From assembly GCA_041746255.1 (NCBI GenBank), contig JBGTHM010000097.1:1-64000 (forward strand): a stretch of DNA of 64,000 bases. Reading direction: 5' to 3'. Below are positions 31,437 to 52,412 of this stretch, in pieces. A model generated the notes under the pieces. That model did no database searches. It was not told the origin of the DNA and saw only the letters and a program-made list of their open reading frames with translations. How positions within the stretch are numbered: position 1 is the stretch's first letter; the number at the start of each line of letters is the position of its first letter. Source of the stretch: Fibrobacteria bacterium. Its GTDB lineage: Bacteria; Fibrobacterota; Fibrobacteria; UBA11236. A program made the translations under genes and the position numbers.

Positions 31437-32513
31437 ATGCTTAAGCCTATTTTCTTGTTCCTAATAAGTATTGCATGCATCACCCAAGCCATAGCCCAGG
31501 TTCCCATGGGGAGAATGGCCTATATCGCCGACGGCAATTACCGCGATTCGGATGATATCGCCGCTACCCCGGTGGGCCTGGCTATTCTCCGAGCCATGGG
31601 GCTGGAAAAGAAATTGGTCCATTATTCCCATTCCTGCGACCTCAAACCGGGTTCAGGTGATCCCGGCGGCCCTTTTCGTGAAAAGGAAATGCAGATTAGC
31701 AGCGACGGTACCGCAGAACGCTGGGGCGGTTTCGAACATATCACTTTCTTCAATGCCCTCCGGGCCACGGACGCCACGGTCAATGATCTTGTCAAGCACA
31801 TCAACAACTCGACCGAAGCGGATCCACTCTGGATTATCGAGGCAGGCGAACCGGACATCATGGTTATGGCCCTGAAAAAAAGCGACCGCGCCAAGGCGAA
31901 ATTCGTGCACATCATCACCCACCATCCCGCGAACGACAAGGGCGATACCTATAACCTTGAGGATGTTTTTAAGGAAGGTGTCCCTACGGCGAATATCCAT
32001 CGCATACCCGATCAAAACACATTGCTCAGAAAAAAGCTGTCCGAATTCCACTGGGCTAGGGACCATAAGGACTCGCGAATCAAATGGCTTTGGGATAGGG
32101 TGAACCTGGCTCAATCTACCGAAATGAAATACCCGCAAATAGTAGGCTGGGCTGACATTTCCGACGCGGGAATGGTATGGTGGTGGGCCACCCTCGATAA
32201 GGGCGGCGATGAAAAATGCGACTTTCCCAAAATCAGAAAATTACTCGAAGACTATGTTGCCAAACCTGTTATGTCGATATCGTTTTCCGGAAACCCGCGC
32301 GGCTTGGAAGTCCATTCCGGAAAGGGTGGTTTCACCATAGTTGCAAGCTCGGAACCTATTCAATTGGAAGTGGTCAATCTACAGGGGAAAGTCATTCATC
32401 ATGAATCCGGTCGCCTGAAAAGCACATTCATTCCCGTTACGGAAAAGGGCATGCACTTTATCCGGCTTTCACAAGGTAATTTCCGCATAAATACGAAATA
32501 TGTTTCCCGGTAA
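31437..32513 (+). CDS. Secreted nucleoside-hydrolase-like-fold protein of unknown function with T9SS-like tail
   Basis: Start moved to ATG 31437; ADGNYRDSDD; PLWIIEAG; SDAGM; tail VVNLQGK...KGMHFIRL; paralog of 12207..13313. Confidence 0.6.
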   Translation: MLKPIFLFLISIACITQAIAQVPMGRMAYIADGNYRDSDDIAATPVGLAILRAMGLEKKLVHYSHSCDLKPGSGDPGGPFREKEMQISSDGTAERWGGFEHITFFNALRATDATVNDLVKHINNSTEADPLWIIEAGEPDIMVMALKKSDRAKAKFVHIITHHPANDKGDTYNLEDVFKEGVPTANIHRIPDQNTLLRKKLSEFHWARDHKDSRIKWLWDRVNLAQSTEMKYPQIVGWADISDAGMVWWWATLDKGGDEKCDFPKIRKLLEDYVAKPVMSISFSGNPRGLEVHSGKGGFTIVASSEPIQLEVVNLQGKVIHHESGRLKSTFIPVTEKGMHFIRLSQGNFRINTKYVSR

Positions 32514-32544
32514 CAAACTATGGAAATCATCGAGTGATAAGTGG

Positions 32545-34773
32545 ATGGACCGAGGCTTATCGGCATCCTTGGGTCTACTGCTATTTTGCGCGGCCACCGC
32601 TTCCAGCTCGGAAATCGATACCCTGACAGCCCGGCTGGTCGGGGTGTGGAGCTTGGAAGAGGCATCGTCCGCGGTATCCGACTTATCCAGCCAAAAATCG
32701 GACGGAACCTGGCCCGATATCGATTATACCAACCGGGACCGTACCAATTGGATTGTCGCCTCCCATCTCTATCGGCTACGTAGTATGGCGACGGCCTTCA
32801 ACCAGCCTACGCATCCGGCCTACGGGTCCGTGGCAATGAAGAACGGAGTGTTGAAGGGATTGGACGCCTGGTTTGCCAAATCCCCCTCCAGCCAGAATTG
32901 GTTCTGGAACGACATTGGGCCGCAAAACCAACTCGCTCCCATTCTGCTCATTATGAAGCCGTATCTAACGGCTCAGCAATTAAAGAACGGCGCCGAGATT
33001 TTCAAGTATAAAAGTGGGTGGACCGGGCAAAATAAAATCTGGTTCGCCGCTCAACTCGTCTACCGTGGCAGTCTCACAAATTCCCCTTCCGACGTGCAAG
33101 AGGGAGTGACCATTGTGGCGTCGGAAATCCAAGTATCCACCCAGGAAGGCATGCAACCGGAATTCAGCTTCCACCAGCACGGCCCTATGCCGTATAACGC
33201 CAACTACGGATTTTCTTTGCTGCTGACGGTTTCCCCGCTTATGCATGCTACTCATGGCCTATCCTTTGCATTTCCCCAAGCGAAGCAGGATATCCTTATT
33301 CGTTACGTACTCGAAGGCACGCAGTGGCTGTTTCGACGCGGAGATTGGGCCCTCGCCGTCCACGGACGGGAAATCTCACGGCCAGGCGCATCGACAACCA
33401 TGGTGCTTTACGGCGCCGACAAGGCGTTGCAGGGCGCCCTACAGCAACTTCGACGGGTTGCCGGTAATCGTGGTGGAGAAATAGAGGCATTCCTCAATCA
33501 TATCAAGGGTGGTAACGACGGGGCGCTGGAAGGCAACAAACACTTCTGGCGATCGGATATCATGTCCCACAGGCGGAGTCCCTTTACCGCCTCGCTTCGT
33601 ATGACTTCCACCACCACGGGTAGAACGGAATCTATCAATAGCGAAAATTTAAAAGGGGGATATTTTCCGTTCGGCTCCCTGTTCCTTCAGAGACGGGGAG
33701 ATGAGTACCGGGACATTCGTCCCGTTTGGGACTGGTCTCGGATTCCCGGTGTCACCTCGCCGCATAAAAATGCTACACCTAATGGAACCGTGCAAGGAAA
33801 TACCCTTTTCGTGGGTGGAGTTTCGGATGGCCAATACGGCGTCGCCGCCATGGACTTGAACCATGACGGAGTGACCGGACATAAAAGCTGGTTTTTCTTC
33901 GACCGGGAAATAGTCGCACTCGGTTCGGATATCGTAGGGACGGGAAATGATCCGGTATTCACTTCGGTCAATCAGACAGCCGCGCGAGGTGAAGCCTGGA
34001 CCGGCTCATTCGCCGGTAATGGATCCGCCTTGGGAGCCCAGCCGGCACAGTTGTCCGGCAAAGCTTGGGTACACCATGACAGCACGGGATATCTTTTCTG
34101 GGATGCCGAAGCCGTTACAGTTCAAAATGCGAAGCAAACGGGAAGTTGGTCCTTAATCAATGCGAATTATTCCTCAACGAAGGAAACCCGGGATGTTGTC
34201 AGCCTTTGGTTTAATCATGGGGTGAAGCCGAATAAGAAATCTTATGCTTACGCTCTGCTGCCCGGTTTTTCCCGTGAAGAAGTAAAAGTCTACAGCGCAT
34301 CACCCAAGGTGGAGGTGGTCTCGAATACAGCGGCGCTCCAAGCCGTTCGGAATAACGATGCAGGAATCACCGGGATTGCATTTTTCGCAGCCGGAACGGT
34401 AGATGTAAACTCTGATATGCGCATTCGGGTGAGCGCGCCTTGCCTGGCATTGGCCAAATTCCAGGCCGGGAAAGTGGAGTTGACCTTGTCGAACCCTAAG
34501 AAAACCGCTTTGTCGGTAAAGGCCGACCTTCTGTCCGGAACCCAAACCGTGGCTTCCTTGACCTTCGCATTACCCGGAGATGCAGCTAATGGGGGGAAAA
34601 GCACAACTCAGACCTTCGCATACACGGTATCCGCATTGTCCCCCTATCCCAGCGCCGCCCCGTGGCTTAACCAAAACCACGGAAGGATGCCCAGCCCTGT
34701 TTGGAGGGGGTCCTGCGGCTCAGGTTCCGCACTACCCTGCATCTATACCACGGATGGAAAACGGCTGCCCTAG
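32545..34773 (+). CDS. Polysaccharide lyase family 8 (chondroitin AC/hyaluronate/xanthan lyase-like)
   Basis: NWFWNDIG, TGQN, FHQHG...Y..NYG, GREISR, ESINSEN, WDWSRIPGVT, KSWFFFD; signal peptide from ATG 32545. Confidence 0.92.
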   Translation: MDRGLSASLGLLLFCAATASSSEIDTLTARLVGVWSLEEASSAVSDLSSQKSDGTWPDIDYTNRDRTNWIVASHLYRLRSMATAFNQPTHPAYGSVAMKNGVLKGLDAWFAKSPSSQNWFWNDIGPQNQLAPILLIMKPYLTAQQLKNGAEIFKYKSGWTGQNKIWFAAQLVYRGSLTNSPSDVQEGVTIVASEIQVSTQEGMQPEFSFHQHGPMPYNANYGFSLLLTVSPLMHATHGLSFAFPQAKQDILIRYVLEGTQWLFRRGDWALAVHGREISRPGASTTMVLYGADKALQGALQQLRRVAGNRGGEIEAFLNHIKGGNDGALEGNKHFWRSDIMSHRRSPFTASLRMTSTTTGRTESINSENLKGGYFPFGSLFLQRRGDEYRDIRPVWDWSRIPGVTSPHKNATPNGTVQGNTLFVGGVSDGQYGVAAMDLNHDGVTGHKSWFFFDREIVALGSDIVGTGNDPVFTSVNQTAARGEAWTGSFAGNGSALGAQPAQLSGKAWVHHDSTGYLFWDAEAVTVQNAKQTGSWSLINANYSSTKETRDVVSLWFNHGVKPNKKSYAYALLPGFSREEVKVYSASPKVEVVSNTAALQAVRNNDAGITGIAFFAAGTVDVNSDMRIRVSAPCLALAKFQAGKVELTLSNPKKTALSVKADLLSGTQTVASLTFALPGDAANGGKSTTQTFAYTVSALSPYPSAAPWLNQNHGRMPSPVWRGSCGSGSALPCIYTTDGKRLP

Positions 34774-34803: not shown

Positions 34804-36201
34804 TTACCGTACCACCAATTGCGATTGGCCGCTCGATTTCAGGAGATAGAGGCCTTTAGCCTGGCTCGAAAGGTCGATAACGGATCCTCGCCCTTCCAGA
34901 ATGGGTTTACCGGATACCGAATACACTCGCCAGTTTCCCGGGACCTCAAGGTGGATGACTCCCTCCACTCGCTGCGGCGTCAGCCGAAGGCCGCGCTGTT
35001 GGGATACCGCCGAGGGGTCCTGTCCGGATACTCTGTGATATTCATTGATGCGCTTATCCGATATTTTGAAATCGTCGAACCAGGCATGGATATCCTCGGT
35101 GGGCTCATATTCCGTGGACGAGCCGCCTAAAAAGGCGGAGACCAAGAGGTTGTTGATGGTCATCTCCTTGGATGACCCCTGCGGCAACCAGAAACCGAAA
35201 TTCTCGGAATTGGTCCTCCTATGGCCCTTGCCTCCATCCACCCAACCTTCAAAAATCCCGTCCTTATTTCCGGGCGTCTCGAATTTGTAATACAATTCGA
35301 TGTTATGCCATTTTCCGGTAGTAAGGTAGGGTGTAAAAGTCCTTTCGCACAGCGACGGTTTATGCACCAGCTTCTCTCCCCAAAACCTTTCCGCGTCTTC
35401 CGCAAAGGATTGATCGGCATTTATGGTTTCCGGATAAAACTGAATGCTGCCCCCCACTCGCCACATGATCCGGCCTTTCCATCGGCTTTCGTCGGCAGGG
35501 TAGTCTCCTCCCAGGCTCGGCAGCTTTCCGCCGCATTTGTCGAACTGAAAATTATCGCTGAACTTGACCCAATAGGACAAAAAAAGCTCCTTCGCTTTGA
35601 AAGGATTATCCTTATAGGTCCCTTGAATCGGAATACGCGTGTCGACCCCGGACCCCGAGGATTTCAACTCACCTTTTGGAAATCTCACCTTCAAGGAGGA
35701 TCCGACTCCATCGACGCTTTCATTCGGGTCTATGGAAGCTCGATTCGTGGCGTCGGTAGGGTTTACCCTGTCGTCCGCGAAGCCCGCACCATGCGCGACA
35801 TGCAAATCCGCTTTCAACTCGTCGGCCGTATAGTTTTTTCCCGGCCTCAGCGCGTCGAAGTTCAAGTGAAACACGCAAGAATCGAGCACCGGATCTTTTT
35901 CCAAAGTTATATCCACTTGACCGGAGCCCACGTTCACGTTTCTTTTCGAGGCATAGCCCATCGCCGCGGCGACGAGAGTAGTGGCGCCCCCTCCTTCCAG
36001 CGAATAGGAGCCGTTCGCGGCCGACTTGGCGAATTTCGAAGGATCCGCTGCAACGGTAATCAGGGCATTGGCGATGGCCGTACCTTGGGAGTTTTTTACC
36101 ACTCCCGTAATTGTCTGGGCCGAAACCGGACAGCATACCGCCAAGGCAACGACAATCAGAAGCGCGGGAACTGAAGTTTTTGCACGGTAATTCATTTTCA
36201 C
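34804..36201 (-). CDS. Secreted PL14-like polysaccharide lyase with N-terminal carboxypeptidase-regulatory-like domain and T9SS-like tail
   Basis: YWVKF...GGKLP, RIMWR, GKWH, FLGG, WFDDF motifs; the start may instead be ATG 36195. Confidence 0.8.
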   Translation of the reverse strand: MKMNYRAKTSVPALLIVVALAVCCPVSAQTITGVVKNSQGTAIANALITVAADPSKFAKSAANGSYSLEGGGATTLVAAAMGYASKRNVNVGSGQVDITLEKDPVLDSCVFHLNFDALRPGKNYTADELKADLHVAHGAGFADDRVNPTDATNRASIDPNESVDGVGSSLKVRFPKGELKSSGSGVDTRIPIQGTYKDNPFKAKELFLSYWVKFSDNFQFDKCGGKLPSLGGDYPADESRWKGRIMWRVGGSIQFYPETINADQSFAEDAERFWGEKLVHKPSLCERTFTPYLTTGKWHNIELYYKFETPGNKDGIFEGWVDGGKGHRRTNSENFGFWLPQGSSKEMTINNLLVSAFLGGSSTEYEPTEDIHAWFDDFKISDKRINEYHRVSGQDPSAVSQQRGLRLTPQRVEGVIHLEVPGNWRVYSVSGKPILEGRGSVIDLSSQAKGLYLLKSSGQSQLVVR

Positions 36202-36361: not shown

Positions 36362-36937
36362 TTAATCGCCAGGTTCCAGTACGGAAATATTCCGGAATTC
36401 GGCGGTATCATCGAACGACCCGATGCCGACCAAACCGTTCCGCAGAGAGATATCGACTGCATCCAGGGCTGAATTTTCCGCATCGTCCATAAAAACCCGG
36501 ATACGGCCCGATTCGCCTTCGCGGTTCAGCCTTACGCGATGCCAATTCCGATCCGTGAGGGTGGGGTCGCCATTCCCAGCGTCGATACGACGGCGATCGG
36601 CTTCATTTACGATAAAGATGCCGTTATGCACCGCATCGGTGACGCCGGAGAGGTGGGCATAATAAAATCGCGAGGGAGATTGATACCCGAAGACCAGGAC
36701 GATGTCCGCGCGATTGAGACCCGGATCCATGGTGGATCGGAATTCCAGGCTGATTTCGAAATCGGTCTTTTCCAGTCCTGCCAGCAATGCCAAGGCTGCC
36801 GGCCGCCGTATGGGTCCACCCGGCTTGCCAGCCTGATAGAGCACAAGCTTGTTTTCGTTCAATTCCCATTTGCCGTTGCCGTCGAGGATCCAGTCTCGGG
36901 TGATTTCCCCCGATAGCTCAGGACATTGTATTCTCAC
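36362..36937 (-). CDS. Cytoplasmic ConA/DUF1080-like beta-sandwich protein
   Basis: GTG 36937 overlaps the EamA stop (GTGA); FYYAHLS, WHRVRL, GLVGIGSFDDTAEFRNI. Confidence 0.6.
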   Translation of the reverse strand: MRIQCPELSGEITRDWILDGNGKWELNENKLVLYQAGKPGGPIRRPAALALLAGLEKTDFEISLEFRSTMDPGLNRADIVLVFGYQSPSRFYYAHLSGVTDAVHNGIFIVNEADRRRIDAGNGDPTLTDRNWHRVRLNREGESGRIRVFMDDAENSALDAVDISLRNGLVGIGSFDDTAEFRNISVLEPGD

Positions 36938-37842
36938 GATCCCCCCAAAGTTAGCGCCGCCAAGCCGGCCAGCATCACGGTAGCACCGGCGAAACGGGTT
37001 CGCCATTGCGTCTCCTGGAAAAACAGGCCGCCGAAAACGACGCTGAAAAGAATGGAGCAGCGCTTGAGCGCCACCACGTAGGGCGCCGGCCCGGATTGCA
37101 GGGCATAGGTTTGGGCTACATAGGCCAGGGAACCCAATAACCCAATCAACAGGAGAGCCGGTAACGAACGGAACCAGAGTTGTTTATGCGCCGAGAAATG
37201 CTCCGAGCGGGTTACGGCCTGGTTGGATAATCCCGCGCGCCACCACACCCAGGGAATCAGCGCCAGCCCGACCGCCAGGTTCATGGAAAAGCACCAGAAC
37301 GCGGGTGAGCTGGCTTGAGTGCCCAACTTATCGTAATTGCTGGAGACGCTCCAGAGTAAGGCGATAGCGAGCATATAGCGCGAACCCATATTCTGCCAAG
37401 GAGAAATCAATAGGCTCCACCAACCTTTGCGCCAGGAACTGAGGTCCAGCGCATAGGTTCCGCAAGTAATCAGAATCACCCCCAGAAGCCCCCATCCCGA
37501 TATCCGATCGCCGACCATAACCGGAGAAGTGACGAGCATGAAGACGGGAGTGAACGCCAGCAGCGGCATCACCTGGGATAGCGGAGCGATTTGCAGGGCG
37601 CGCAGATAAAGCAAAGTAGTGATGAAATTGATGCCGCCGCCTAAGGCCAGAGCCGACCAAAAACCGGAGTGCAAAACCGGAGCCCCTTCCCACAGAACCA
37701 AGGGTAACAGCCAGAATACTCCGAGGAGACGGTTGCCTACGCCGACCACACCTATGTCCAGCGACTGTAACGACTTTTTACTGGTCGAATCCTTCAGGGC
37801 CGTGAACAAAGCCGCCCCCAGGGAAGGTAATATCCAGCCCAA
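36934..37842 (-). CDS. EamA/DMT-family transporter
   Basis: About ten hydrophobic helices in two repeats; ALQIAPLS..MPL; VVALKR.SILF. Confidence 0.88.
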   Translation of the reverse strand: MGWILPSLGAALFTALKDSTSKKSLQSLDIGVVGVGNRLLGVFWLLPLVLWEGAPVLHSGFWSALALGGGINFITTLLYLRALQIAPLSQVMPLLAFTPVFMLVTSPVMVGDRISGWGLLGVILITCGTYALDLSSWRKGWWSLLISPWQNMGSRYMLAIALLWSVSSNYDKLGTQASSPAFWCFSMNLAVGLALIPWVWWRAGLSNQAVTRSEHFSAHKQLWFRSLPALLLIGLLGSLAYVAQTYALQSGPAPYVVALKRCSILFSVVFGGLFFQETQWRTRFAGATVMLAGLAALTLGGS

Positions 37843-37866: not shown

Positions 37867-38796
37867 TCAAGGCGAGCAAATTCCCAACGCGGTGTAGAAT
37901 TCCGCCATGAGTTTATGCACATAGACACCGGAGTATTTTCCGTCGAAGAAGCGCGGAGCGGCTTCCTCCTTGAGCCTTTCCCATGAGGCCTGTTCGCGAC
38001 CGGGGATGATGGGATAAAAAAGCGCGCCGCAATTCCGGGCGGCTTCCAAATCACCCGGCGCGTCGCCGATGAGGAGGGTTTTTTCGCGGGTAAACCCCCG
38101 GTCCATGGCGACCTTGAGTTGATGGGACTTGGTTCCGAATTCTTGGCCGGCCATAGCGTCCAGAAAAATATGGAGTCCCGTGCGATTCCATTCTTCCTGT
38201 AAAGCTTCGGTAGACGCTTGGGAAATTACCACGACATCCGCCTGCGACCTTAAAAATTCCAGGCCTTCCGCCACGCCACCAAAGGGCTCTATACCTCCGG
38301 AATGTTCCCGGGACAGCCGATTGACTTCCGTCGACCAGTCCAAGGCGAACTTAAGCGGCGCAATCTCTTTACCCCTTGCATCGGAATCGAAATCCGGATT
38401 TTGCAACCAGGCTTTCAATCCGTCCGCGCTCAAGGAGCCGCCCGAGGCCATCCACCTTTCCAGGGGAGCTGAATCCAACTGAGGGTAACTTTCAAGGTTT
38501 ACCCCGGGAGATTTTTGCAACTCCGCGAAGACCAGAGCCAGGGCGCGAAAGCGATTTGATCCGCGCGAGGGCGAAAACAGATTGACGGATTCCCAAACCC
38601 GGGAGGCTTCCGAGAGGATGGGAGAAAGGTTGTAAACGGAAAGCAGGGCCGGGAAAAAACAGCGGCGATGCTTGAGGTTCATGCTGTCCAGAGCGCTGCC
38701 ATCGGAATCGACACCGATCAGGAATTCCCGCGTAGAGCGGAAATCGTTAAGTGAGGGGACGCGAACCGGCGATTGAGTCACTGCGGCGTCAGACAC
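37867..38796 (-). CDS. HAD-superfamily hydrolase/phosphatase
   Basis: Motif I GVDSDG; motif IV LIGDAPGD. Confidence 0.85.
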   Translation of the reverse strand: MSDAAVTQSPVRVPSLNDFRSTREFLIGVDSDGSALDSMNLKHRRCFFPALLSVYNLSPILSEASRVWESVNLFSPSRGSNRFRALALVFAELQKSPGVNLESYPQLDSAPLERWMASGGSLSADGLKAWLQNPDFDSDARGKEIAPLKFALDWSTEVNRLSREHSGGIEPFGGVAEGLEFLRSQADVVVISQASTEALQEEWNRTGLHIFLDAMAGQEFGTKSHQLKVAMDRGFTREKTLLIGDAPGDLEAARNCGALFYPIIPGREQASWERLKEEAAPRFFDGKYSGVYVHKLMAEFYTALGICSP

Positions 38797-42595: not shown

Positions 42596-42694
42596 GTCTT
42601 GTTCCTTTCAAGTAACCGGAAATTTGTAGTATAGATGGCATAAGTTAACGGATTTGCGTGCTTCCGGTTTTTTGCTTCGGAATCCAGATTACAT

Positions 42695-42837: not shown

Positions 42838-42890
42838 GGGCATTCAAACCCGCTTCCATGAGCGGACATCCCGCCTAATTTCTGTTGCAC

Positions 42891-44513
42891 ATGCTTAAAA
42901 AATCTTGCTCGCGTTTTATTGTGGTCGCCGCCCTTGTGCTCGGCCCAGGCGGTTTACTTCCAGTTAAGGCCCAATTGGGACCCATCGAGTTGCATACCGA
43001 CGGCAAAAAGGTATCGCCTTGGGTATATGGAGTAGAGAACTCCGCCAGCCCCTTGGCTCTCGGTTTCTTTTTGAAATCAGGCTATGCTTATGAGAGTAAC
43101 CTGTTCGATAGTCCGAATCATTTCCGCAACCTGGGAACCAACCAAGCCCGCCAGTTTCCCTCGTCGGTGAATATGATGCAGGATGGCACAGCTTGGTATT
43201 CCGCTACCGGAGCGGAGATGAACTGGGACTTAGGCCAACATCGATTGCGCTTCATGGCCGCTGCGCAAAACTACCGGGTTCCCGGCAAGGATATGCCAGC
43301 GTTTCTGGACGACGGAAAATTCAACGGCTTGCTCGAATCGCTGGCCGACAAATCCTCCTGGAACCTTTATATGCAGCATCGGTGGAACCTACTCCCTTGG
43401 CTGGAACAACAAACCTTACTCCAAATGGACCGTAATTATGCGAAGAACACCGACATTTTCGGCCGCGCGGCCCTGGGCAATGGTGAAGATTTCCTCCATA
43501 ATGAAGCGACGGTCGAATACCTGGCCAATACACCGGCTCCGCCGGGTTTGGGAAGAGGACAGGCCTCCCTCATGCTTCAGGCCCGTCACCGCGAGTATTC
43601 CCCTTCCATCAAGAACGTCCCATACTGGATGGCCGACTCGATTCTCCTGATTGAAAAAGACGGCCCACTACTGAACGCCTTTAACTTCAACGACACCCTG
43701 AACGCGGATTACCTGCAATGGCGAGGTCGTCTGCGTCATATTCAAGGCATGCGCCATGGGTTTTCTTCACGCGTGTCATTCGATTTGATAAAACGCGATT
43801 ATTCAGACATGCTGGCTAAACTCATCAAGGACACCACCCGGGTTCCGGCAGTGGATATGGGCGACATTCCCGTGATTCCGATATACAACTCGGACAGCGT
43901 AGTGATTGGCACTATGCCGCCTCCGGGACATCCCAAGCGTTCCCAATCGGAATACCGCGCCTATGCAGGTTTGCAATACGACCCCCCACATGTCAACCAT
44001 TTGCGTTTGCAGGTAGGCTGGCAATGGTTAAAGGTAACCGATCCCTATCAGGGTTTTTACGGGTATACTCAACGAGGCCTGTTTGCCTCGACGATTTACG
44101 CGCCTTCGAGTCTGGCCCATATCGAATTGGCCATGAGGGTGAGCCAGCGTACTTATGACGAATTGTTGGCAAACCTGCAATACTGGGCGCCACGCGGAGT
44201 CAATCAAGTGGAATTCAACAACGGCGCGCCCGTAAAAACCGTCACCATCGACGAACTCGGGAATCCCAGGAACATTTACGACATTAGCTACCAAGGGGCG
44301 ACCCGGCTGGCTACCCAATCCGTGGCCGTCAGTTTGCGGGGACAATTGCCGGTATGGCGGAATCTGGCGCTATGGGCCCATATGTTCCTGGATATGCGCA
44401 ACAGTAACCGACCGGATACGGAAATGTTGAGTCGGGAATACTACAACCATCTGGTGGGAGCCGGGATTACCGTATACATGGACTACAATCACAAAAAAAG
44501 GGGTGACCTATGA
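42891..44513 (+). CDS. Putative outer-membrane beta-barrel protein of unknown family
   Basis: Signal peptide; many amphipathic aromatic strands (LKSGYAYESN, YRAYAGLQYD, LRLQVGWQW, LVGAGITVYMDY); no recognisable TonB box or plug. Confidence 0.65.
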   Translation: MLKKSCSRFIVVAALVLGPGGLLPVKAQLGPIELHTDGKKVSPWVYGVENSASPLALGFFLKSGYAYESNLFDSPNHFRNLGTNQARQFPSSVNMMQDGTAWYSATGAEMNWDLGQHRLRFMAAAQNYRVPGKDMPAFLDDGKFNGLLESLADKSSWNLYMQHRWNLLPWLEQQTLLQMDRNYAKNTDIFGRAALGNGEDFLHNEATVEYLANTPAPPGLGRGQASLMLQARHREYSPSIKNVPYWMADSILLIEKDGPLLNAFNFNDTLNADYLQWRGRLRHIQGMRHGFSSRVSFDLIKRDYSDMLAKLIKDTTRVPAVDMGDIPVIPIYNSDSVVIGTMPPPGHPKRSQSEYRAYAGLQYDPPHVNHLRLQVGWQWLKVTDPYQGFYGYTQRGLFASTIYAPSSLAHIELAMRVSQRTYDELLANLQYWAPRGVNQVEFNNGAPVKTVTIDELGNPRNIYDISYQGATRLATQSVAVSLRGQLPVWRNLALWAHMFLDMRNSNRPDTEMLSREYYNHLVGAGITVYMDYNHKKRGDL

Positions 44514-45457
44514 AACGCATCATACAACTACAAGCCTTGGCATTGCTATGCCTGACGGGCGCGGCCACGGCCGATGTGGTTCTGGATAATATGCAGGGCT
44601 CAGGGAATCGTAACACCGCCGGCGGCGTCATTTTCGTAGTGGCCGACACCGCGGGCGGCTCTACCTGGACCTATCCCGATATCGGTTTTTCCTATTGGAA
44701 CCTGGCCGATGGCGGACCGGCTCCCGGTGCCGGTAAAGTCACCTATTTGCATGGTACTGTCGGCGGAAAGGGCGATTTCCCCCATTTGACCTATGGCATG
44801 TATTTCGACAATCCCAAATCGGTGCTGGATTTGAGCTGGCTAACCGGCATCGCCTTGCGCGTGCGCGGTGTGGGCCTTTGGCGCACCAAAATCAAATGCA
44901 ATATCATCGATTCCTTGGCCATCGCGGATTTGGGCCGCAAGGAGGATCAGGTCGCATGGAAATATTCTTTAACCGGCTTGAGTTCCACCGAGTTCCAATG
45001 GGTGGTGATAACTCCCGAGCAACTTTCGTCCAATGTCGGCGCCATGAACCTCCTTTTGACCCAAAAAGGAATCAGCAAGCGCGACGTGCTTAAGACCGCC
45101 TGGAAATATTATATCCAAACCGATGGCTATACTTCCGCCGATGCGGGTACCGAGGCATGGATCCAGATTTCCGACATCATTTTTCTGGGACCTCAAAATT
45201 CCATTGGCGCATCCATCGTGAAGCCTACCCCGGCTCAATGCGCGGAGATCGGCGCCTGTAGTGGAGGCAGCTCCATTCTGTCAAGAGGCATTTCTTTTTC
45301 AAACAGGATGCCCACGCCCCAATCGCATATTTTCGCATTGGACGGTCGGTTCTTAGGAAAGCATGGTTCTCTCAGTCAAACCGCATCTTTGCCTAAGCTA
45401 TACCTAAACAAGGATGAGGGAAAAACCTCCTTGCATTCTTCACTGTCAGGACGTTGA
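44510..45457 (+). CDS. Secreted CBM11/CIA30-like carbohydrate-binding protein with T9SS-like tail
   Basis: Signal peptide; DVVLDNM...GG; DLSWLTGIALRVRG.G; IQISDI; tail IFALDGR. Confidence 0.6.
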   Translation: MKRIIQLQALALLCLTGAATADVVLDNMQGSGNRNTAGGVIFVVADTAGGSTWTYPDIGFSYWNLADGGPAPGAGKVTYLHGTVGGKGDFPHLTYGMYFDNPKSVLDLSWLTGIALRVRGVGLWRTKIKCNIIDSLAIADLGRKEDQVAWKYSLTGLSSTEFQWVVITPEQLSSNVGAMNLLLTQKGISKRDVLKTAWKYYIQTDGYTSADAGTEAWIQISDIIFLGPQNSIGASIVKPTPAQCAEIGACSGGSSILSRGISFSNRMPTPQSHIFALDGRFLGKHGSLSQTASLPKLYLNKDEGKTSLHSSLSGR

Positions 45458-45463: not shown

Positions 45464-46228
45464 GTGAATTTTCCGAAACTGTTTTCCTTTTTGGTATTGG
45501 GGTCTGCCCTCTCCTTCTCGGACGTCCTTTTGGACGACATGGAGGGAGAGCGCCTCAACCAGGCCCGCTCCGGCGGATACTGGTTTTTGATTTTGGACGC
45601 CAAGTCCCATCAGGATGCCAACTCCCAACTGATCTTTCCTCCCGATCTCAATTTCAGATTCCATGATACGGCAGGTTACGGAGGCAGTCGCGGCGCCCGG
45701 ATTCATGTGAAGATAGGTTCGGGCTATCGTTATCCCTTCGCCGGCATCGGATTCAATATCGATAATTTCCGGGAACCCGTCGATTTTCTCAAAGTGCATA
45801 GCGTGCGCTTTCTGGCTCGCGGCAAGGGAACTTTCCGGCTTAAAATTCGGGACGTTTGGAGTACGCGCCAAACCCCCAATGCCAATTTCGAGCATGACTT
45901 CATCGTTAGTCCGGAGTGGCAGGTTTTTGATTTGGAAACCAAGGACTTTCGCGTTCCCCGAGGTTCCCCATACCGGCGCGAAGGGAAAACCTGGGAAGAC
46001 GTGGCCGATTCGGTAATCAGTTTGATTTTTACCACGGCGTCCTATCAGGACAGGGATGCCGGTACCGAAATCAGGCTGGACTTGGACCTCATCTCCCTGG
46101 TGGGTATCGACTCGGCCGGAGCCTCGACCACACGGCCCCCCAAATATCCCCAGCTAAAATCCAACCGGCATTTGGAACGAGGCATCCGCGAAGAGGATTT
46201 TGACGATGCCGGAAGCTCGGAGTATTGA
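45464..46228 (+). CDS. Secreted CBM11/CIA30-like carbohydrate-binding protein
   Basis: Signal peptide; DVLLDDME...GGYW; YPFAGIGF; VRFLARGKG; WQVF; LDLISL; paralog of the preceding gene. Confidence 0.65.
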   Translation: MNFPKLFSFLVLGSALSFSDVLLDDMEGERLNQARSGGYWFLILDAKSHQDANSQLIFPPDLNFRFHDTAGYGGSRGARIHVKIGSGYRYPFAGIGFNIDNFREPVDFLKVHSVRFLARGKGTFRLKIRDVWSTRQTPNANFEHDFIVSPEWQVFDLETKDFRVPRGSPYRREGKTWEDVADSVISLIFTTASYQDRDAGTEIRLDLDLISLVGIDSAGASTTRPPKYPQLKSNRHLERGIREEDFDDAGSSEY

Positions 46229-48015
46229 TGGAAAGCACTCTGGCCACGGTCGGAAACCTGGACTATGCCATCATTGCGGGCTATATGGCCCTGATGTTGT
46301 CTCTGGGTGTGATTTTCAAACGCTTCAACAAAAACTCCACCGACTATTTCCGTAGCGGCAGCCGCACGGCCTGGTGGATGGTGGGCGCCAGCTCATTTAT
46401 GACCGCCTTCAGCGCCTGGACCTTTACCGGAGCGGCATCGGCGGCCTACAATTCGGGCATCAGCGTAGCGGTTATTTTCATCGCCAATACCTTCGGCTTC
46501 TTGGTCAATGCCGCATTCTTGGCGGGATGGTACCGGCAAATGCGCGTAACCACGCTTCCAGAAGTTCTACGGGAGCGCTTCAATAAGGCCACACAACAGG
46601 TTTATGCCTGGCTGGGAGTCATCTTCTCCTACCTGATGGCCGGCTTGCACCTTTGGGGCGTATCGATTTTCGCTTCGGCCATTTTCGGTTTCCAAGTCGA
46701 GCATATCATCATCGTGCTGGGCATCGTTGTGGTCTTCTATAGCACGGTGGGCGGCGCTTGGAGCGTATCGGCCACCGATTTCGTACAGGCACTCATTCTC
46801 ATCCCGCTCACCATTCTCGTAGCCATCCTATCGCTTATTGAAATTGGCGGCTTTACCGGCTTGCTCCAATCGTTGAAGTCCGCGGGATTGGATAATCACC
46901 TGGTGCTGGTGGAAACCGGGCCAATGGCCAAATTCACCTTAATCTATTGCATTGCGGTGATAATGAAACAGCTCATGGTCTATATCGGCCTAAACGACTC
47001 GGTCAAGTATTTCGCCGTTAAGGATGGCACCGAAGCGCGTAAAGCTGCGGCTCTGGCGGGCTGCATGATGTTCGCCGGCAGTTTGTTGTGGTTCATCCCT
47101 CCCGTGGTGGCGCGTTTAAAATATTCCCACCTGGTCGAGGGCATTCCCCTGAAAAATCCGGCGGAGGCTGCCTATGCGGTAGCGGGAATGCAACTCCTTC
47201 CGACCGGCCTGATCGGTTTATTGATGGTGGCGGTGCTCGGCGCGACCATGAGTTCCATGGACAGCAGCCTTAACCGCAACGCCGCTATTTTTACCCGCGA
47301 CATCGTGAAAGGTTTGATGTTCCCGAATTTGCGGGAAGAATCGCAATTGCGCATTGGGCAAGGTTTCACCTTGGTATGCGGAGCGATAGTTATCAGTTTG
47401 GCGCTGTACTTCTCCGGTCGGAGCGGCCAAGGCATTTTCGAAACCATGATGCAAATTGGCGGCTTAGTGGCCATTCCCAAGCTGGTGCCTCTGCTTTGGG
47501 CACTCTTCGTACGGAACTCACCCCAGTGGATTGCCTTGGTTTGCGCCGCCTTCGGTTTTACGAATTCAATCTTCCTGGAATTTTTCTGGGACAGTTATCC
47601 CATCAAATTCGGTGCGGACGAAAAATTCCCCACCATCATTTTCACCAACTTCGCTTTAGGCACAGTGGTTTACTGGTTGGGTACCTGGTTTTACCCGGCC
47701 CGGGACGCTTATCGGGAACGCACAAAGGCCTTTTTTAAACGGATGCATACCCCCGTTAATTTCGAAGAAGAAGTGGGCGGTTCAGTGGATCGCCAACAAT
47801 TTCGCATTATCGGTATATCCTGCATGGTGCTGGCTGTCTTCATCCAGATTTTCGGCTTTCTTCCGGGTTCGTCCCGAATCGGCCTGTTCTTTTTCGTATC
47901 TGGTTTTATCGGATTGACCGGTTTGCTTTTCTGGTTCGCTTCGCGGCGCGATAAGTATAACCTTAAGCCCGCTCCACCTCCGGTAACCCCGGTTCCCATC
48001 GAGGAAGAGGCCTGA
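46228..48015 (+). CDS. Sodium:solute symporter (SSS) family transporter
   Basis: DYFRSG...WWMVGAS.F...FSAWTFTG; GG..SV..TDFVQ; ATMSSMDSSLN; many TM helices. Confidence 0.93.
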   Translation: MESTLATVGNLDYAIIAGYMALMLSLGVIFKRFNKNSTDYFRSGSRTAWWMVGASSFMTAFSAWTFTGAASAAYNSGISVAVIFIANTFGFLVNAAFLAGWYRQMRVTTLPEVLRERFNKATQQVYAWLGVIFSYLMAGLHLWGVSIFASAIFGFQVEHIIIVLGIVVVFYSTVGGAWSVSATDFVQALILIPLTILVAILSLIEIGGFTGLLQSLKSAGLDNHLVLVETGPMAKFTLIYCIAVIMKQLMVYIGLNDSVKYFAVKDGTEARKAAALAGCMMFAGSLLWFIPPVVARLKYSHLVEGIPLKNPAEAAYAVAGMQLLPTGLIGLLMVAVLGATMSSMDSSLNRNAAIFTRDIVKGLMFPNLREESQLRIGQGFTLVCGAIVISLALYFSGRSGQGIFETMMQIGGLVAIPKLVPLLWALFVRNSPQWIALVCAAFGFTNSIFLEFFWDSYPIKFGADEKFPTIIFTNFALGTVVYWLGTWFYPARDAYRERTKAFFKRMHTPVNFEEEVGGSVDRQQFRIIGISCMVLAVFIQIFGFLPGSSRIGLFFFVSGFIGLTGLLFWFASRRDKYNLKPAPPPVTPVPIEEEA

Positions 48016-49649
48016 TGGGCCTGTTTTTACCCTTGTTGCTGGCTGCCGGAACGGCCTGGAGTTGGAATTCCCAACTGCTGTTACCCGATGGCGGCGGATT
48101 CACCCGAGCAGTGGTTGAACGGGACAGCCTGGATTTCCGTCTGGCGGATTTCTCCTTTGCCGGATACCGGGCGGGAGAAGATTCCCTTCCCAACCGGAAA
48201 CCGGATATCACCTTGTCCCCGGAGACTGGGGATAATGTCAAACGCATCAACGATGCGATACGCAAGTTAGCCAAGCTTCCGACCGATTCGCGTGGGATAA
48301 GAGGCAAACTCCTTCTCAAAGCGGGTACCTGGGAAATCGGGGATGAAATCCGCATCTTCCATTCCGGCATCATACTGGCCGGTGAAGGCGCGGATAAAAC
48401 CTTCCTCTATGTGAATTCCCGGAAATTCGCCCGCAAGGCGGCCATCAGTGTTTCCGGACCCTCCTCAGAGGAATGGAAACGGATCCCGGCGGGAACCCAC
48501 CGCGCCAAAATGTTGGAGGATCCGCCCGATCAGGCCACCTTCGTGCGGGTAGAAACCGCCGACACTTTTAAACCCGGACAAATGGTGATTGTTCGACAAT
48601 GGCCGTCACGGGAATTCTCGCGCGCGCATGGCGCGGACGGCATCAAATTCTGGCCAGCGAGCCTGGATAATACCGCCATTAAATTTGCCCGGATGATTCG
48701 CGATGTACGCGGAGATACGCTTTTATTTACCGAACCCCTGCGCTATCCCCTCCATGTCCGTTATGGAGCCCATGTCTTTCCCGCGGCCTTCCTTCAGGAA
48801 GTGGGAATCGAGAATTTTTCCATCGGCTTCGCGAAAGGAGATGGCGTGGGAGGAATGGCAAGCACGAACCGCGCGGCGGCGATTTATATGAACGACGTGA
48901 TGAACGGGTGGGTTCGGGGGGTGAAATCTTACCAGCGCGACGAAAACAGCGCTCATTTGCAAAGCTATGGTATCACCTTGCGCGCATGCAAATGGATTAC
49001 CGTCCAGGATTGCTCCATGCAAGACCCTCAGAACAAAGGCGTGGGCGGCAACGGATATCTCTATAACCCCGTGACCAGCGACGCAATTCTGTTTCGGCGC
49101 TGCCGAGCTTCTGGAGGAAGGCATAATTTCGCCCTGCACTACAGTTCCAGCGGATGTGTTATCACCGACAGTTATTCCGCCTATTCGCGTTCCGATTTTC
49201 ATCAATTCCTTTCCACCGAAAATCTTTTCGATAACTTCACCCTGGAAGGGGATTCGCTTACTGCCGGTAACCGCGGCGATAAAAGCCAGGGTGCATGGTG
49301 GACCACCGCCAAGGCGACCCTGTGGAATCTCAAAGGCTCCGGAGCGGTGTACCTGAATTCATGGCATCGAGGCTATTTGATCGGCGTCGCTCCCGGCATT
49401 CGTGTGGGTACCGGTACCCAAAATATTTTGCAGGATTATGGAGATACCTATTTGCCGGAGCTCCAATGGGTCGAACCCGGCCCAGAGGGTGAAGCATTGG
49501 ATCCTCCTTCACTTTACGAATTCCAGCTTAAGGAACGCTTAAGTTCCGGAACCAGGGTTTTCCAAACCGACGCTTTGGTTGAGAGGGAAAATGCAACGCG
49601 AAACCTGGAGCCTCAGGATAGATTGAATATGGAGGATCATTCGCAATGA
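48015..49649 (+). CDS. Secreted/periplasmic beta-helix (pectate-lyase-3-like) glycan-active protein
   Basis: Signal peptide; DFSFAGY; ILAGEG; EVGIEN; GGNGYLY; GRHNF; ENLFDN; PPSLYEFQL. Confidence 0.72.
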   Translation: MGLFLPLLLAAGTAWSWNSQLLLPDGGGFTRAVVERDSLDFRLADFSFAGYRAGEDSLPNRKPDITLSPETGDNVKRINDAIRKLAKLPTDSRGIRGKLLLKAGTWEIGDEIRIFHSGIILAGEGADKTFLYVNSRKFARKAAISVSGPSSEEWKRIPAGTHRAKMLEDPPDQATFVRVETADTFKPGQMVIVRQWPSREFSRAHGADGIKFWPASLDNTAIKFARMIRDVRGDTLLFTEPLRYPLHVRYGAHVFPAAFLQEVGIENFSIGFAKGDGVGGMASTNRAAAIYMNDVMNGWVRGVKSYQRDENSAHLQSYGITLRACKWITVQDCSMQDPQNKGVGGNGYLYNPVTSDAILFRRCRASGGRHNFALHYSSSGCVITDSYSAYSRSDFHQFLSTENLFDNFTLEGDSLTAGNRGDKSQGAWWTTAKATLWNLKGSGAVYLNSWHRGYLIGVAPGIRVGTGTQNILQDYGDTYLPELQWVEPGPEGEALDPPSLYEFQLKERLSSGTRVFQTDALVERENATRNLEPQDRLNMEDHSQ

Positions 49650-50686
49650 TATCCAAATATTTTTTGTTCGGAATCCTCCTGATGGGAATCGTCTCAGCCG
49701 CCGAAAAGCTGGACGTATCCTTCGACAACCAGAATTTAGGAACTTATACGCGCTCGAAAATGCGCGTTGAATGGGCCGGTGAAAACTGGGACAACGGCCT
49801 GGGGGAAGGGCGCGGCCGCATCGTAGATGGCGCAAACGCCTATGCCGGCAAAGCGCTGGAAGTCCGCTACCTGGGTGGAAAATTCGGACCCGAAGCGGGT
49901 GTGCAATTCCAGGGGAATTTCACGGCAACAGACGCCGCCACCCTGGAATACCGCGTCAAATTTCCGGCGGGTTTCAAATGGACCAAAGGCGGAAAACTTC
50001 CCGGTTTATGCGGTGGGACTTGCAGCACGGGAGACGAGAATCCAACCGGGGCCAACGGCTGGAGCGCGCGTTATATGTGGAGAGAGAACGGGCAGGCTAT
50101 CCTTTATCTTTATCACATGAATTGGACCAACCACGGAGACCAACTCGATCTGAAGCTTTCCGGCGCGAATGTGCGATTCGAGACCGGCCGCTGGCATCAT
50201 CTCAAGCAATCCATTAAAATGAACACCCCGGACAAAAGAGACGGCCAAATCATTGTCTGGCTGGATGGTAAAGAGGTGTTACGCACAGCTTTCGTGAAGT
50301 TTCGCTCCGTCCCAACCTTGAAAATCAACAAGGTCTACTTTTCCACCTTCTTCGGAGGCAGCGATAACTCCTGGTCTCCTTCATCGGAACAAATCGCTTA
50401 TTTCGACGACTTTCATATCTATCCCGACAAGCCTTCCAGTGGCCTGGCATTCCAAGCCACCCAAAACGGATTGATCCGCTCCGCAACTCCCGGATGGACC
50501 CGCCTGACCGCCCCATCCCCAGTCGGCACCTGGATTCTTTCGGACTCCCGAGGAAAAACTTTTGGGCGGTACGATGGAGAAGTGCTTTCCCAAGGGAAAT
50601 GGATCTCCATGACTCCGGGAAACTATTATTGGCTATGGCATGAAAACAACGCGACGAATCCTGTCAGGACGGTCCCCCACCGTTAA
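49646..50686 (+). CDS. Secreted PL14-like polysaccharide (alginate/glucuronan-type) lyase
   Basis: YRVKF..GF.WTKGGKLPGL.GG, GWSARYMWR, FSTFFGG, YFDDF. Confidence 0.88.
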   Translation: MISKYFLFGILLMGIVSAAEKLDVSFDNQNLGTYTRSKMRVEWAGENWDNGLGEGRGRIVDGANAYAGKALEVRYLGGKFGPEAGVQFQGNFTATDAATLEYRVKFPAGFKWTKGGKLPGLCGGTCSTGDENPTGANGWSARYMWRENGQAILYLYHMNWTNHGDQLDLKLSGANVRFETGRWHHLKQSIKMNTPDKRDGQIIVWLDGKEVLRTAFVKFRSVPTLKINKVYFSTFFGGSDNSWSPSSEQIAYFDDFHIYPDKPSSGLAFQATQNGLIRSATPGWTRLTAPSPVGTWILSDSRGKTFGRYDGEVLSQGKWISMTPGNYYWLWHENNATNPVRTVPHR

Positions 50687-50717
50687 AGCCGATTCCCCAA
50701 CTCGGGAAGGAGAACTC

Positions 50718-52412
50718 GTGATCCGGCCCACCCAAGCTGAAAAAATCGCACAAGTGCTCGAACGGAGAATCCAGGACGATTCCAGTCCCGTTCTGCCGCC
50801 CATGCGAACTTTAGCCCAAGAATACCGGGTTTCCTTGAATACCGTTCACAAAGCCGTTGCCCGTCTGAAAAGCCTGGGAATGGTGGAGGTCTACCAGGGC
50901 GGGAAAATCCGGATTCAGGGTCGACATAGCAGCGCCGAATTAGAGTGGCGTCCCAAACCCACTTCTCGCGAATTCATCTATCAATTCGTTCGTGATCGGA
51001 TTTGCAGTGGAGTCTATCCCATCGGCAAACCTCTGCCCAAGGTGGCTTATCTGGCTTCCAGTCAAAATCTTTCGCACCATGCCGTTACGGCTTCTTATCG
51101 TCGTCTGGAAACCGAAAATCTGGCGCGTAAAGAAGGCCGGCTCTGGATGGCCGGTCCGCGACCGCCCAAAGTGGAAGCGGAATTTCTGAGGCAACCCGTA
51201 ATTGTGCTGCTACAATCCCATGAGGATTTTTGGATTCACACGGCTCAGCGCCCGTTTTTCGAATCCTTCTGCCGCAGTTTTCAGGCCGAAATGGAAGCCG
51301 CCGGCGTGCAATTGATGCCCGCATTGTTTTCCGAACGCGGAGAAGCGGGAGGAGGCCTTCCGGCAGGACAGATTGCCGTATTCACTTTGATTCGCTCCTT
51401 GGGGACACGCTATCGGGGCGCTTTGATTCTCAATGCCGCCAAAGAGGTGAGGGACTTGGAAAAGTGGGTACAAGGGCTCTCCCGGTTCAATCGACCGGTA
51501 ATCTGGTTCGACCGCCTTAAAGAAAACCCCAAATTCCGTACCCGCTCCAGCCAATTTACCCGCTGCCATAGCGCCGAGGATCGCGCCGTGGATCAGGTGG
51601 TCACCTTCCTTACCGGCCTGGGGCACCGCCACATGGCGTATGCCGCATTGAGTCGGGAAAAATGGGCCGCTTATCGCGGAGACCTTATCCGGCAGGTTTT
51701 GCGGGAGAGGGTTCCCGGCGGTGAATTGCACCTGGCGGAAAAAGATTCCCGAATTTTTCTGGAAGGGCCGATGCCGCAAAGAATGGCCGCCTTGAAGGCC
51801 GTATCGGAATCGGAAACCGTTCCGGCCGCGGTCCGGAAAGCCATTCGTTTGCTGGCCAAGCTCAAAGATGAGAACGGTGAAAAACTGCCGTGGAAAATCC
51901 GTACGGCCTACAGCGAAGACCCTTGGCAAGGGGTGGCGGCGTTACTGGAAGAAATTGAAGCCGACCCCCATCGCGTACCCCCCCTGCTGGAACTGTTTCC
52001 TTCTTACCGCAACCTGCCCTGGCTGGTGATGCTCTATCCCTTGCTGAGATCCATTTTGGAAAACCCCCTTATTACAGCCATAATCGCACCCAATGACTTT
52101 CTCGGCCATAAACTCAACTACTGCTTAAAAGCCATGGGTATCGCGGTACCCCAGAAAATCTCCCTGATTTCCTTCGACAATCAATGGTTCCTGCAAAGCC
52201 TGCCGGTGACCACGGTGGATTTCGGCTATTCCTATCTCGGGTTCGCGGCTTTCCACCAAATCGCCCAGGATATCGACTTGAAAGTGATTGACGGCAATAT
52301 TCCGGCCCAACCCCGGATCATGCACCGGGGATCGGTGGCGGCACCCTCCAAGTTTTACCCGGATCCGGTTGAAATATCAGCCTCCCGGAGAGAGTCCAAA
52401 CAAAGGAGATGA
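50718..52412 (+). CDS. Transcriptional regulator with two tandem GntR wHTH domains and a LacI-type sugar-binding domain
   Basis: LPPMRTLAQEYRVSLNTVHKA and LPKVAYLA...SHHAVTASY; LGHR; ND...G..VPQKISLISFDN; RBS GAAGGAG before GTG 50718. Confidence 0.85.
   Translation: MIRPTQAEKIAQVLERRIQDDSSPVLPPMRTLAQEYRVSLNTVHKAVARLKSLGMVEVYQGGKIRIQGRHSSAELEWRPKPTSREFIYQFVRDRICSGVYPIGKPLPKVAYLASSQNLSHHAVTASYRRLETENLARKEGRLWMAGPRPPKVEAEFLRQPVIVLLQSHEDFWIHTAQRPFFESFCRSFQAEMEAAGVQLMPALFSERGEAGGGLPAGQIAVFTLIRSLGTRYRGALILNAAKEVRDLEKWVQGLSRFNRPVIWFDRLKENPKFRTRSSQFTRCHSAEDRAVDQVVTFLTGLGHRHMAYAALSREKWAAYRGDLIRQVLRERVPGGELHLAEKDSRIFLEGPMPQRMAALKAVSESETVPAAVRKAIRLLAKLKDENGEKLPWKIRTAYSEDPWQGVAALLEEIEADPHRVPPLLELFPSYRNLPWLVMLYPLLRSILENPLITAIIAPNDFLGHKLNYCLKAMGIAVPQKISLISFDNQWFLQSLPVTTVDFGYSYLGFAAFHQIAQDIDLKVIDGNIPAQPRIMHRGSVAAPSKFYPDPVEISASRRESKQRR

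Follow-up and report, generated by a model that had tools for sequence, protein, structure and literature searches.

How can a bacterium without SusD proteins bring the fragments of an acidic polysaccharide across its outer membrane? The question is raised by a locus of a Fibrobacteria bacterium (Fibrobacterota, UBA11236; GenBank assembly GCA_041746255.1), which occupies positions 31,437 to 52,412 of the 64,000 nucleotides that we analysed, hereafter the window (contig JBGTHM010000097.1, positions 1 to 64,000). Glycan uptake through the outer membrane is understood mainly from SusCD and other TonB-dependent transporter (TBDT) systems and from a few specific porins of Proteobacteria. The locus encodes polysaccharide lyases, a predicted outer-membrane barrel, two paralogous proteins resembling carbohydrate-binding modules (CBMs; proteins A and B), and a sodium:solute symporter of the SSS family. 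We read it, with a probability of about 0.55, as a system of the "specific porin plus symporter" kind that works without TonB and serves an acidic polysaccharide containing glucuronic acid (GlcA) and probably N-acetylhexosamine (HexNAc).

The genes form a divergent pair of tightly packed operons. We mapped the open reading frames (ORFs) of the window and scanned 48 of them (at least 90 aa, one per overlapping set) with Pfam and NCBIfam profiles, and this reproduced the arrangement and gene order described in the original prediction, which had been made from the sequence and an ORF list. The rightward operon consists of the barrel, A, B, the symporter, a beta-helix-like protein, a lyase of polysaccharide lyase (PL) family 14, and a regulator. 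Its junctions, taken from the longest ORFs, are a 4-nt overlap, a 6-nt gap and then overlaps of 4, 1, 4, and 47 nt. A divergent intergenic (promoter) region of 295 nt (42596..42890) separates it from the leftward operon, and a repeat scan of this spacer gave short imperfect repeats only, with no convincing operator. The regulator (50640..52412, + strand) combines two GntR helix-turn-helix domains (64.9 bits over two stretches) with a LacI-type sugar-binding domain (Peripla_BP_3, 48.5 bits).

Neither TBDT, SusD, and ABC-transporter domains nor matches to PF00593, to SusD, or at the level of TIGR04056 were found among the 48 ORFs, as had been claimed for this locus. It is not a polysaccharide utilisation locus (PUL) of the SusC/SusD type, because adjacent genes for a SusC-like TBDT and a SusD-like protein are absent. 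At the genome level, SusD (PF07980) gave 0 matches in an assembly that is 100% complete, and the same search matched the Bacteroides thetaiotaomicron control. The five PF00593 matches of the genome are all on other contigs; four look siderophore/haem/B12-like and one TonB-Xanth-Caul-like.

The candidate for the outer-membrane step is the first gene of the rightward operon (42891..44513, + strand), which encodes an orphan of 540 aa with a signal peptide and about 26 residues ahead of the first predicted strand. Against Pfam-A at E ≤ 10 it matched no outer-membrane protein family, the KdgM/oligogalacturonate porin profile included, and its sole match was Myosin_head (E 0.41). No porin family of Pfam or NCBIfam was matched, and the sole NCBIfam hint was the exopolysaccharide (EPS)-associated outer-membrane protein EpsL, below threshold (E 0.0095, 15 bits). 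An exhaustive HMMER search of 1.84 billion representatives at E ≤ 0.001 gave a family of 8: the query itself, five full-length relatives at 34–38% identity, and two fragments. Word-indexed homologue searches added nothing beyond the proteins of the window itself or two relatives already known, and two metagenome-contig scans (one with an alignment query, one with a barrel relative) confirmed no further locus. The gene is single-copy in its genome.

The original prediction had proposed that this orphan is an outer-membrane barrel, and structure prediction followed by Foldseek supports this. With the 8-row family alignment, AlphaFold2 (AF2) predicted 16 long antiparallel strands (predicted TM-score 0.63, mean predicted local distance difference test score (pLDDT) 59.4), with most strands at pLDDT 70–90 and low-confidence loops. 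The strand connections of the model alternate strictly, with 2–7 residues on one side and 8–50 on the other, the classical picture of short turns at the periplasmic side and long loops outside. The predicted fold is thus that of a 16-stranded porin: a closed antiparallel barrel with short turns and long loops. Foldseek with the model gave 257 matches at E ≤ 1e-3, and all among the matches listed were outer-membrane barrels. With VIA, the alignments covered the entire Omp35, OmpF, OmpC, and OmpK36 chains (Z 18.0–18.8, root-mean-square deviation of about 4 Å, 283–297 aligned residues).

A dyad test that is independent of the model coordinates, using the mean hydrophobicity of the family over the predicted strands, pointed in the same direction. 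The difference between the two strand faces was 2.33, against a mean of 1.03 ± 0.19 over 2000 shuffles, the highest of which reached 1.80. The polar face holds 35 of the 42 invariant strand residues, and 12 of these are Arg (R120, R164, R232, R278, R280, R282, R294, R302, R350, R356, R372, and R420). We are therefore highly confident that the predicted 540-aa barrel is a genuine outer-membrane barrel. Its conserved interior, as modelled, would suit anionic solutes, which makes the protein a candidate anion-selective oligosaccharide channel and, judging from the predicted fold, a previously undescribed porin family. A plug or TonB box was not seen in it, though none was looked for.

One further feature of the barrel is an invariant YDPPH motif at residues 363–367 (window 43977–43991), which falls in the turn that links strands 10 and 11, predicted to be short and on the periplasmic side. 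Such strict conservation in a turn of this kind is unusual for a porin, and the motif may be a docking site.

For the inner membrane, the fourth gene of the operon (46225..48015, + strand) encodes an SGLT-like sodium:solute symporter. By its sequence it is a member of the SSS family: PF00474 matched at 126.8 bits over residues 41–431 (cut-off 22.8), and TIGR00813 at 168.4 bits fell just short of its cut-off of 184. Its relatives among PDB sequences include vSGLT (E 8e-26) and SiaT (E 1e-22).

A synteny search, which the original prediction had called for, found the core of the locus conserved together in two further genomes. The barrel profile matched 2 of the 296 genomes of the phylum, and in a third genome the barrel gene is cut by a contig end. 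Among the 41 close relatives the profile matched one, the source genome itself, and the three core-bearing genomes belong to three different families of Fibrobacterota. The second is a metagenome-assembled genome (MAG) of the Chitinivibrionales (G117; contig record JBEPYC010000315.1, locus L007). It encodes the tandem-GntR regulator (49% identity) and, divergent from it, an FGE-sulfatase domain protein, the barrel (33–34%), A (38%), and B (43%); the FGE-sulfatase gene (sulfatase-maturing enzyme-like, 723–1667, + strand, 151 bits) heads the barrel operon. Another short contig of the same MAG carries the end of the SSS gene (48%, partial gene), the beta-helix gene (56%), and the PL14 gene (46%) in the window's order.

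The third genome (G057) has a 6.5-kb contig (C48) that opens with the final 20 codons of a barrel gene, and their translation is identical to the C-terminus of the barrel relative P0002. The genes that follow encode A (33%), B (41%), the SSS symporter (61%), and the beta-helix enzyme (55%). On a second contig (C102), the regulator orthologue (43%) heads the GH3 operon, with GH3 (68%), DUF2264 (52%), the glucuronate isomerase UxaC, an SDR protein, HAD (38%) and, further downstream, a PfkB kinase. The beta-helix orthologues of these two genomes are at 55–57% identity. Full-length orthologues above 50% were found only in the three genomes that bear barrel, A, and B, and other full-length matches in the phylum were at 35% identity or less. 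In a fourth genome, two fragments in one 353-aa frame (L026, G120:C66:16577-17416) matched residues 13–123 and 343–513 at 46% and 64%. The barrel profile did not match this genome, which is also missing from the list of genomes matched by the CBM profile; the fragments may be remnants of a module copy that has decayed.

Judged by these comparisons, the conserved core comprises the regulator, the barrel, A, B, the SSS symporter, the beta-helix enzyme, and PL14, in 3 of 296 genomes. The beta-helix protein is the module's conserved enzyme. The GH3-DUF2264-HAD set is conserved in at least two genomes, and PL8 and its neighbours are additions made locally. The original prediction had also noted that Fibrobacterota are described as lacking canonical Sus systems. 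With three occurrences in 296 genomes, the system is too rare to be a general solution of the phylum.

At the functional level, the enzyme families agree with the claim that the locus serves a uronate/HexNAc-type glycan, and DUF2264, GH3, PL8, and PL14 all support it. The secreted PL8 lyase (32500..34773, + strand) matched all three domains of its family above their cut-offs (Lyase_8 253, Lyase_8_N 101, and Lyase_8_C 57 bits), and among solved structures it is nearest to chondroitinase AC (1cb8/1hm2, E 1e-86, residues 59–683). Both PL14 proteins are secreted and above the PF21294 cut-off of 27: the lyase of the rightward operon (49646..50686, + strand) with 163.3 bits, and a CarboxypepD_reg-PL14 protein convergent with PL8 (34804..36201, − strand) with 79.4 bits. 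Among PL14 relatives, the solved structures are of alginate lyases; the first of the two proteins matched 5gmt (E 1e-17).

The secreted beta-helix-like protein (48015..49649, + strand) is a candidate lyase. It matched NF058554, the BT_3328/PL29 family, at 36.9 bits over residues 109–305, far under the cut-off of 1100, and Beta_helix (PF13229) at 15.6 bits, so that the fold is only hinted at; no PDB sequence matched at E ≤ 0.1. BT3328 is given in PMC9067506 as the founder of PL29, acting on chondroitin sulfate (CS), dermatan sulfate, and hyaluronan (HA).

The leftward operon starts with a GH3 beta-N-acetylhexosaminidase-like enzyme (40799..42595, − strand; Glyco_hydro_3, 271 bits), which in the PDB is matched best by beta-N-acetylglucosaminidases of family GH3 (6k5j, E 3e-64). 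The next product is a DUF2264/GH154-family protein (38778..40886, − strand), assigned by PF10022 at 346.5 bits and by matches to the solved glucuronate dehydratases 9o4u (E 5e-26) and 9nwf (E 3e-25), both at about 1e-25. Signal peptides were found in neither protein, and both are placed in the cytoplasm. The former GH154 family was reassigned in 2025 (Journal of Biological Chemistry) as beta-D-glucuronate dehydratases that prime GlcA at the non-reducing end, and the dehydratases are described there as partners of GH88/GH105 (PMC12269599). Since UxaC is encoded in the corresponding operon of the third genome, free glucuronate would be an end product.

The FGE-sulfatase gene of the Chitinivibrionales MAG and a sulfatase at window 13392–15401 hint at a sulfated substrate. 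Altogether, the families support a GlcA-containing, probably HexNAc-containing, and possibly sulfated glycan. The sole strong match among DNA sequencing runs (X1, share 0.99), from which the window may stem, is labelled hot springs metagenome, a label that would make a microbial exopolymer likelier than an animal glycosaminoglycan.

From these parts we propose the following pathway. The secreted PL8 and the two PL14 lyases would cleave the polymer extracellularly; putative tails of the type IX secretion system (T9SS) type are present on one PL14 and on the 358-aa neighbour of PL8. Anionic oligosaccharides would then diffuse across the outer membrane through the Arg-rich 16-stranded barrel. The paralogues A and B may bind the glycan or its fragments, with A probably at the cell surface, and the secreted beta-helix enzyme would trim the fragments. 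The SGLT-like sodium symporter would bring in the small product, and the cytoplasmic GH154-type and GH3 enzymes would free uronate and HexNAc for central metabolism. The tandem-GntR/LacI-type regulator probably governs both operons.

The original prediction had compared the barrel and the CBM pair to SusC/D. We consider a specific porin with a symporter, of the KdgMN-ToaABC type, the nearer analogue, because the predicted fold is that of a passive 16-stranded porin. KdgM is a small 12-stranded porin, and ToaABC belong to the SSS family. According to PMC8286568, Vibrio uses alginate through the porin KdgMN and the symporter ToaABC, with no TBDTs and no known substrate receptor. The "scattered" alginate system of Vibrio is described as the outer-membrane porin KdgM/KdgN, ToaA/B/C in the inner membrane, and cytoplasmic oligoalginate lyases (PMC8286568; PMC11493405). 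The proposed pathway likewise begins with extracellular lyases, takes uronate oligosaccharides through a porin rather than a TBDT, uses a cation symporter and no ABC system at the inner membrane, and ends in the cytoplasm. Unlike the Vibrio porin, the barrel is larger (540 aa, 16 predicted strands) and without a KdgM sequence match (Pfam, E ≤ 10). The genes also lie in one regulated locus, with two dedicated CBM-like paralogues between porin and symporter. Thus, the claim of a distinct capture-and-import architecture is upheld in part: the predicted porin family and the A/B pair would be new, but the porin-plus-symporter plan was already known in Proteobacteria.

A second comparison is the CS/HA PUL BT3324-BT3350 of B. 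thetaiotaomicron. As described in PMC9067506, it handles a GlcA-HexNAc polymer by a similar enzyme logic, with lyases of PL8, a PL29 lyase of beta-helix type at the cell surface, and sulfatases nearby. The same paper gives it a SusC (TBDT) with a SusD lid, a GH88, and a hybrid two-component regulator, and two extra surface glycan-binding proteins beside the transporter, to which A and B may be compared. Here, in contrast, the locus has no SusC/D, the genome has no SusD or GH88/105 matches, and the regulator is of the GntR type.

Housekeeping porins resemble the barrel in its predicted fold. OmpF, OmpC, Omp35, and OmpK36 are the best structural matches of the model (Z 18–19 over about 285 residues), but their sequence identity is 6–11%, and the 540-aa protein matches no Porin family. 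It is also about 200 residues longer, all of them in long loops, and unlike those porins it is narrowly distributed and operon-linked.

Several results weigh against the porin-plus-symporter reading. One genomic TBDT matched the carbohydrate-type TonB-Xanth-Caul subfamily at 147.7 bits, under the cut-off of 310, and uptake may depend on a TBDT from elsewhere in the genome. The SSS relatives of solved structure carry monosaccharide-size solutes, which makes the inner-membrane cargo uncertain. The barrel fold alone does not indicate a diffusion channel, because the 16-stranded FhaC, CdiB, and BamA barrels scored nearly as high in VIA (Z 17.8–18.1) as the porins. The barrel model itself rests on 8 sequences, with the mean pLDDT given above and loops below 50, and a single-sequence AF2 model was uninformative (pLDDT 30.7). 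Proteins A and B had no match in Pfam (E ≤ 10) or NCBIfam, and a four-row A/B profile gave 0 matches to PDB sequences at E ≤ 10.

On the enzyme side, PL8 was not found in either of the two other module-bearing genomes, and this tells against reading the substrate as chondroitin or hyaluronan on the basis of PL8. DUF2264 was not found in the Chitinivibrionales MAG. GH88/GH105 unsaturated uronyl hydrolases (PF07470) were not found in the 100%-complete source genome; the cytoplasmic chemistry proposed above therefore does not account for unsaturated uronates, and some other enzyme must handle them. Finally, no RNA sequencing run containing the locus was found.

Proteins A (44510..45457, + strand, 315 aa) and B (45464..46228, + strand, 254 aa) are paralogous, with 24% identity over 245 aa (E 8e-13). 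A is composed of a signal peptide, a beta-sandwich-like domain of about 220 aa, a Cys-containing linker, and a C-terminal tail; B has a signal peptide, the same domain, and a short charged tail. The two sequences examined lack a lipobox, and their mature N-termini share the conserved motif DV-x-x-D-x-M. A T9SS tail on A looked plausible by eye but is not claimed, as TIGR04183 gave no match at E ≤ 10 to the A tails of the three genomes.

The two proteins had been labelled CBM11-like. An Atlas feature search with B, which gives a lead only, returned CBM30 (0.94, the commonest in Fibrobacterota), CBM_11 (0.93), and CIA30 (0.92), which belong to one clan (galactose-binding-domain-like). A profile of the A/B domain matched 175 of 296 Fibrobacterota genomes (a tally that includes the unpublished genome G021, used for no other result), mostly within proteins of 400–1200 aa, and three of eight distant domain relatives matched CIA30 at 19.9–22.4 bits, under the cut-off of 24. 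The label is thus reasonable at the clan level, by this lead and the sub-threshold matches of relatives, but membership is not demonstrated, and neither protein matches a family profile.

The alternative that survives best is that the barrel, A, and B form one physical complex of the outer membrane, which captures the glycan and gates its entry in the manner of SusC/SusD (or of SusCD with SGBPs) but without TonB. The three genes are translationally coupled through the 4-nt overlap and the 6-nt gap, and their order is kept in all three genomes. The shared N-terminal motif of the paralogues fits such a complex, the YDPPH turn of the barrel could serve in docking, and in the B. thetaiotaomicron CS/HA PUL, SusCD is likewise accompanied by a pair of additional surface binding proteins (PMC9067506). 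However, A and B have no lipobox, B has no recognised route to the cell surface, and no gating mechanism is known for a 16-stranded barrel without a plug. Gene neighbourhood is also weak evidence, and conserved linkage is all that speaks for the complex. Co-folding of barrel residues 29–540 with A 22–240 and B 20–254 scored 0.00 in two runs (mark 0.32, no controls), a result that is neutral on binding. We regard the complex as possible but unlikely.

More specifically, one paralogue could hold the polymer or its fragments at the surface, with the other docking on the barrel, for example at the YDPPH turn, and passing anionic oligosaccharides towards the SSS symporter. This is speculative, and we consider it unlikely. 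If true, it would be a symporter pathway assisted by a binding protein, for which no counterpart has been described. In the LamB-MalE and CymA-CymE systems, and in that of ChiP with a chitooligosaccharide-binding protein, a specific outer-membrane channel is encoded together with a soluble protein that binds the same sugar, and these binding proteins are the substrate-binding proteins of ABC transporters. CymA and chitoporin are among the Foldseek matches of the barrel model. In our locus, unlike those systems, the carrier is of the SSS family and the partners are candidate CBM-like beta-sandwich proteins; SSS carriers are not known to use binding proteins.

Another alternative is that the barrel is a translocator or anchor that displays A and B on the surface (Slam, TpsB, or PorP/SprF-like), with the oligosaccharides entering by some other way. 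Translocators of these kinds are typically encoded beside their cargo, an arrangement that A and B would match, and B would need some way to the surface. The TpsB/Omp85 barrels align with the model nearly as well as porins do, and in one Atlas look-alike cluster (rank 17, score 0.95; a lead only) SlipAM is found on 32% of the members. But the few residues before strand 1 leave no POTRA or TPR region, and the protein has no Pfam match to SlipAM, PorP_SprF, or ShlB-type families (E ≤ 10). A substrate channel agrees better with the Arg-rich conserved lumen and with an operon shared with an importer, and we consider the translocator role unlikely.

It is very improbable that the 540-aa protein is no membrane barrel at all, or an exporter or general envelope protein with no part in glycan uptake, which would leave an ordinary lyase/SSS locus with three bystanders: 230 of its 540 residues are below pLDDT 50, its one sequence hint is the sub-threshold EpsL match, and the AlgE and BcsC export barrels are among the Foldseek matches, but it has a signal peptide, a strand dyad pattern far beyond the shuffles, the canonical alternation of short and long connections, and a gene linked to SSS, lyases, and regulator in three genomes. 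Export of EPS was rejected as a role, the operon having no glycosyltransferase or polymerase and being linked to an importer and catabolic genes.

Apart from the genes that carry the proposed pathway, the locus holds several others. The first gene of the interval (31437..32513, + strand) was missing from the original description. It encodes a secreted protein of 358 aa, of unassigned family, with a signal peptide by eye, and it overlaps the start of PL8. Its last 90 aa matched TIGR04183, the T9SS type A C-terminal domain, at 23.2 bits (cut-off 23), and it had no Pfam match and no PDB sequence match. The tail of the CarboxypepD_reg-PL14 protein matched the same profile at 18.6 bits, under that cut-off, and the genome encodes the T9SS translocon SprA (SprA_N, PF14349, 85 bits).

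Downstream of DUF2264 in the leftward operon are a cytoplasmic HAD-superfamily hydrolase (37867..38796, − strand; HAD_2, 30.8 bits), an EamA-family membrane transporter (36934..37842, − strand; PF00892, 80.1 bits in two stretches), and a 214-aa protein without a signal peptide (36362..37006, − strand). The last had been called ConA-like, a label that is not established: it rests on sub-threshold matches (Laminin_G_2, E 0.018), and 3keto-disac_hyd came next (E 0.18).

On both sides, the locus is bordered by a DUF4423/TIGR02147 gene and, overlapping it downstream, a lipoprotein-like CarboxypepD_reg gene (30357–31229 and 29149–30360, both − strand; 52595–53518 and 53515–54816, both + strand). TIGR02147 matched in the window at 260.8 bits and, with the relatives recovered, assigns the organism to Fibrobacterota. 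In other Fibrobacterota, all 4 of the distant CBM-domain relatives whose surroundings were scanned (L015–L018) had the same pairing upstream. The 403-aa lipoprotein-like partner has a C-terminal domain distantly related to the A/B domain (hhalign 65%, E 6e-5). The pair has the look of a two-gene unit, so far uncharacterised, that recurs in Fibrobacterota.

Further upstream, a second set of glycan genes lies at window 10430–20307. It includes beta-helix proteins (10430–12022 and 17001–18368), the CarboxypepD_reg-sulfatase (13392–15401), a GSDH-like dehydrogenase (15603–16988), and a GH39/GH53-like protein (18649–20307), and its target may be the same sulfated polymer or a related one. A VgrG-like protein encoded early in the window (4021–6108, + strand; Phage_GPD 256 bits, Phage_base_V) hints at an element of the type VI secretion or phage-tail kind.

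The listings of the literature searches contained no description of such an uptake system. What would be new here is the predicted porin family with its accessory CBM-like proteins; the TonB-independent porin-symporter plan itself was known. With 3 of 296 genomes and 8 protein clusters world-wide, its reach is limited, and it would represent a niche system, not a phylum-wide substitute for Sus. In Fibrobacterota, with no SusD and few TBDTs, how oligosaccharides enter the cell is poorly known. For this question the locus is a compact, conserved, and tractable candidate, bringing together a predicted Arg-lined porin, two CBM-like proteins, a sugar-type sodium symporter, and an uncharacterised beta-helix family.

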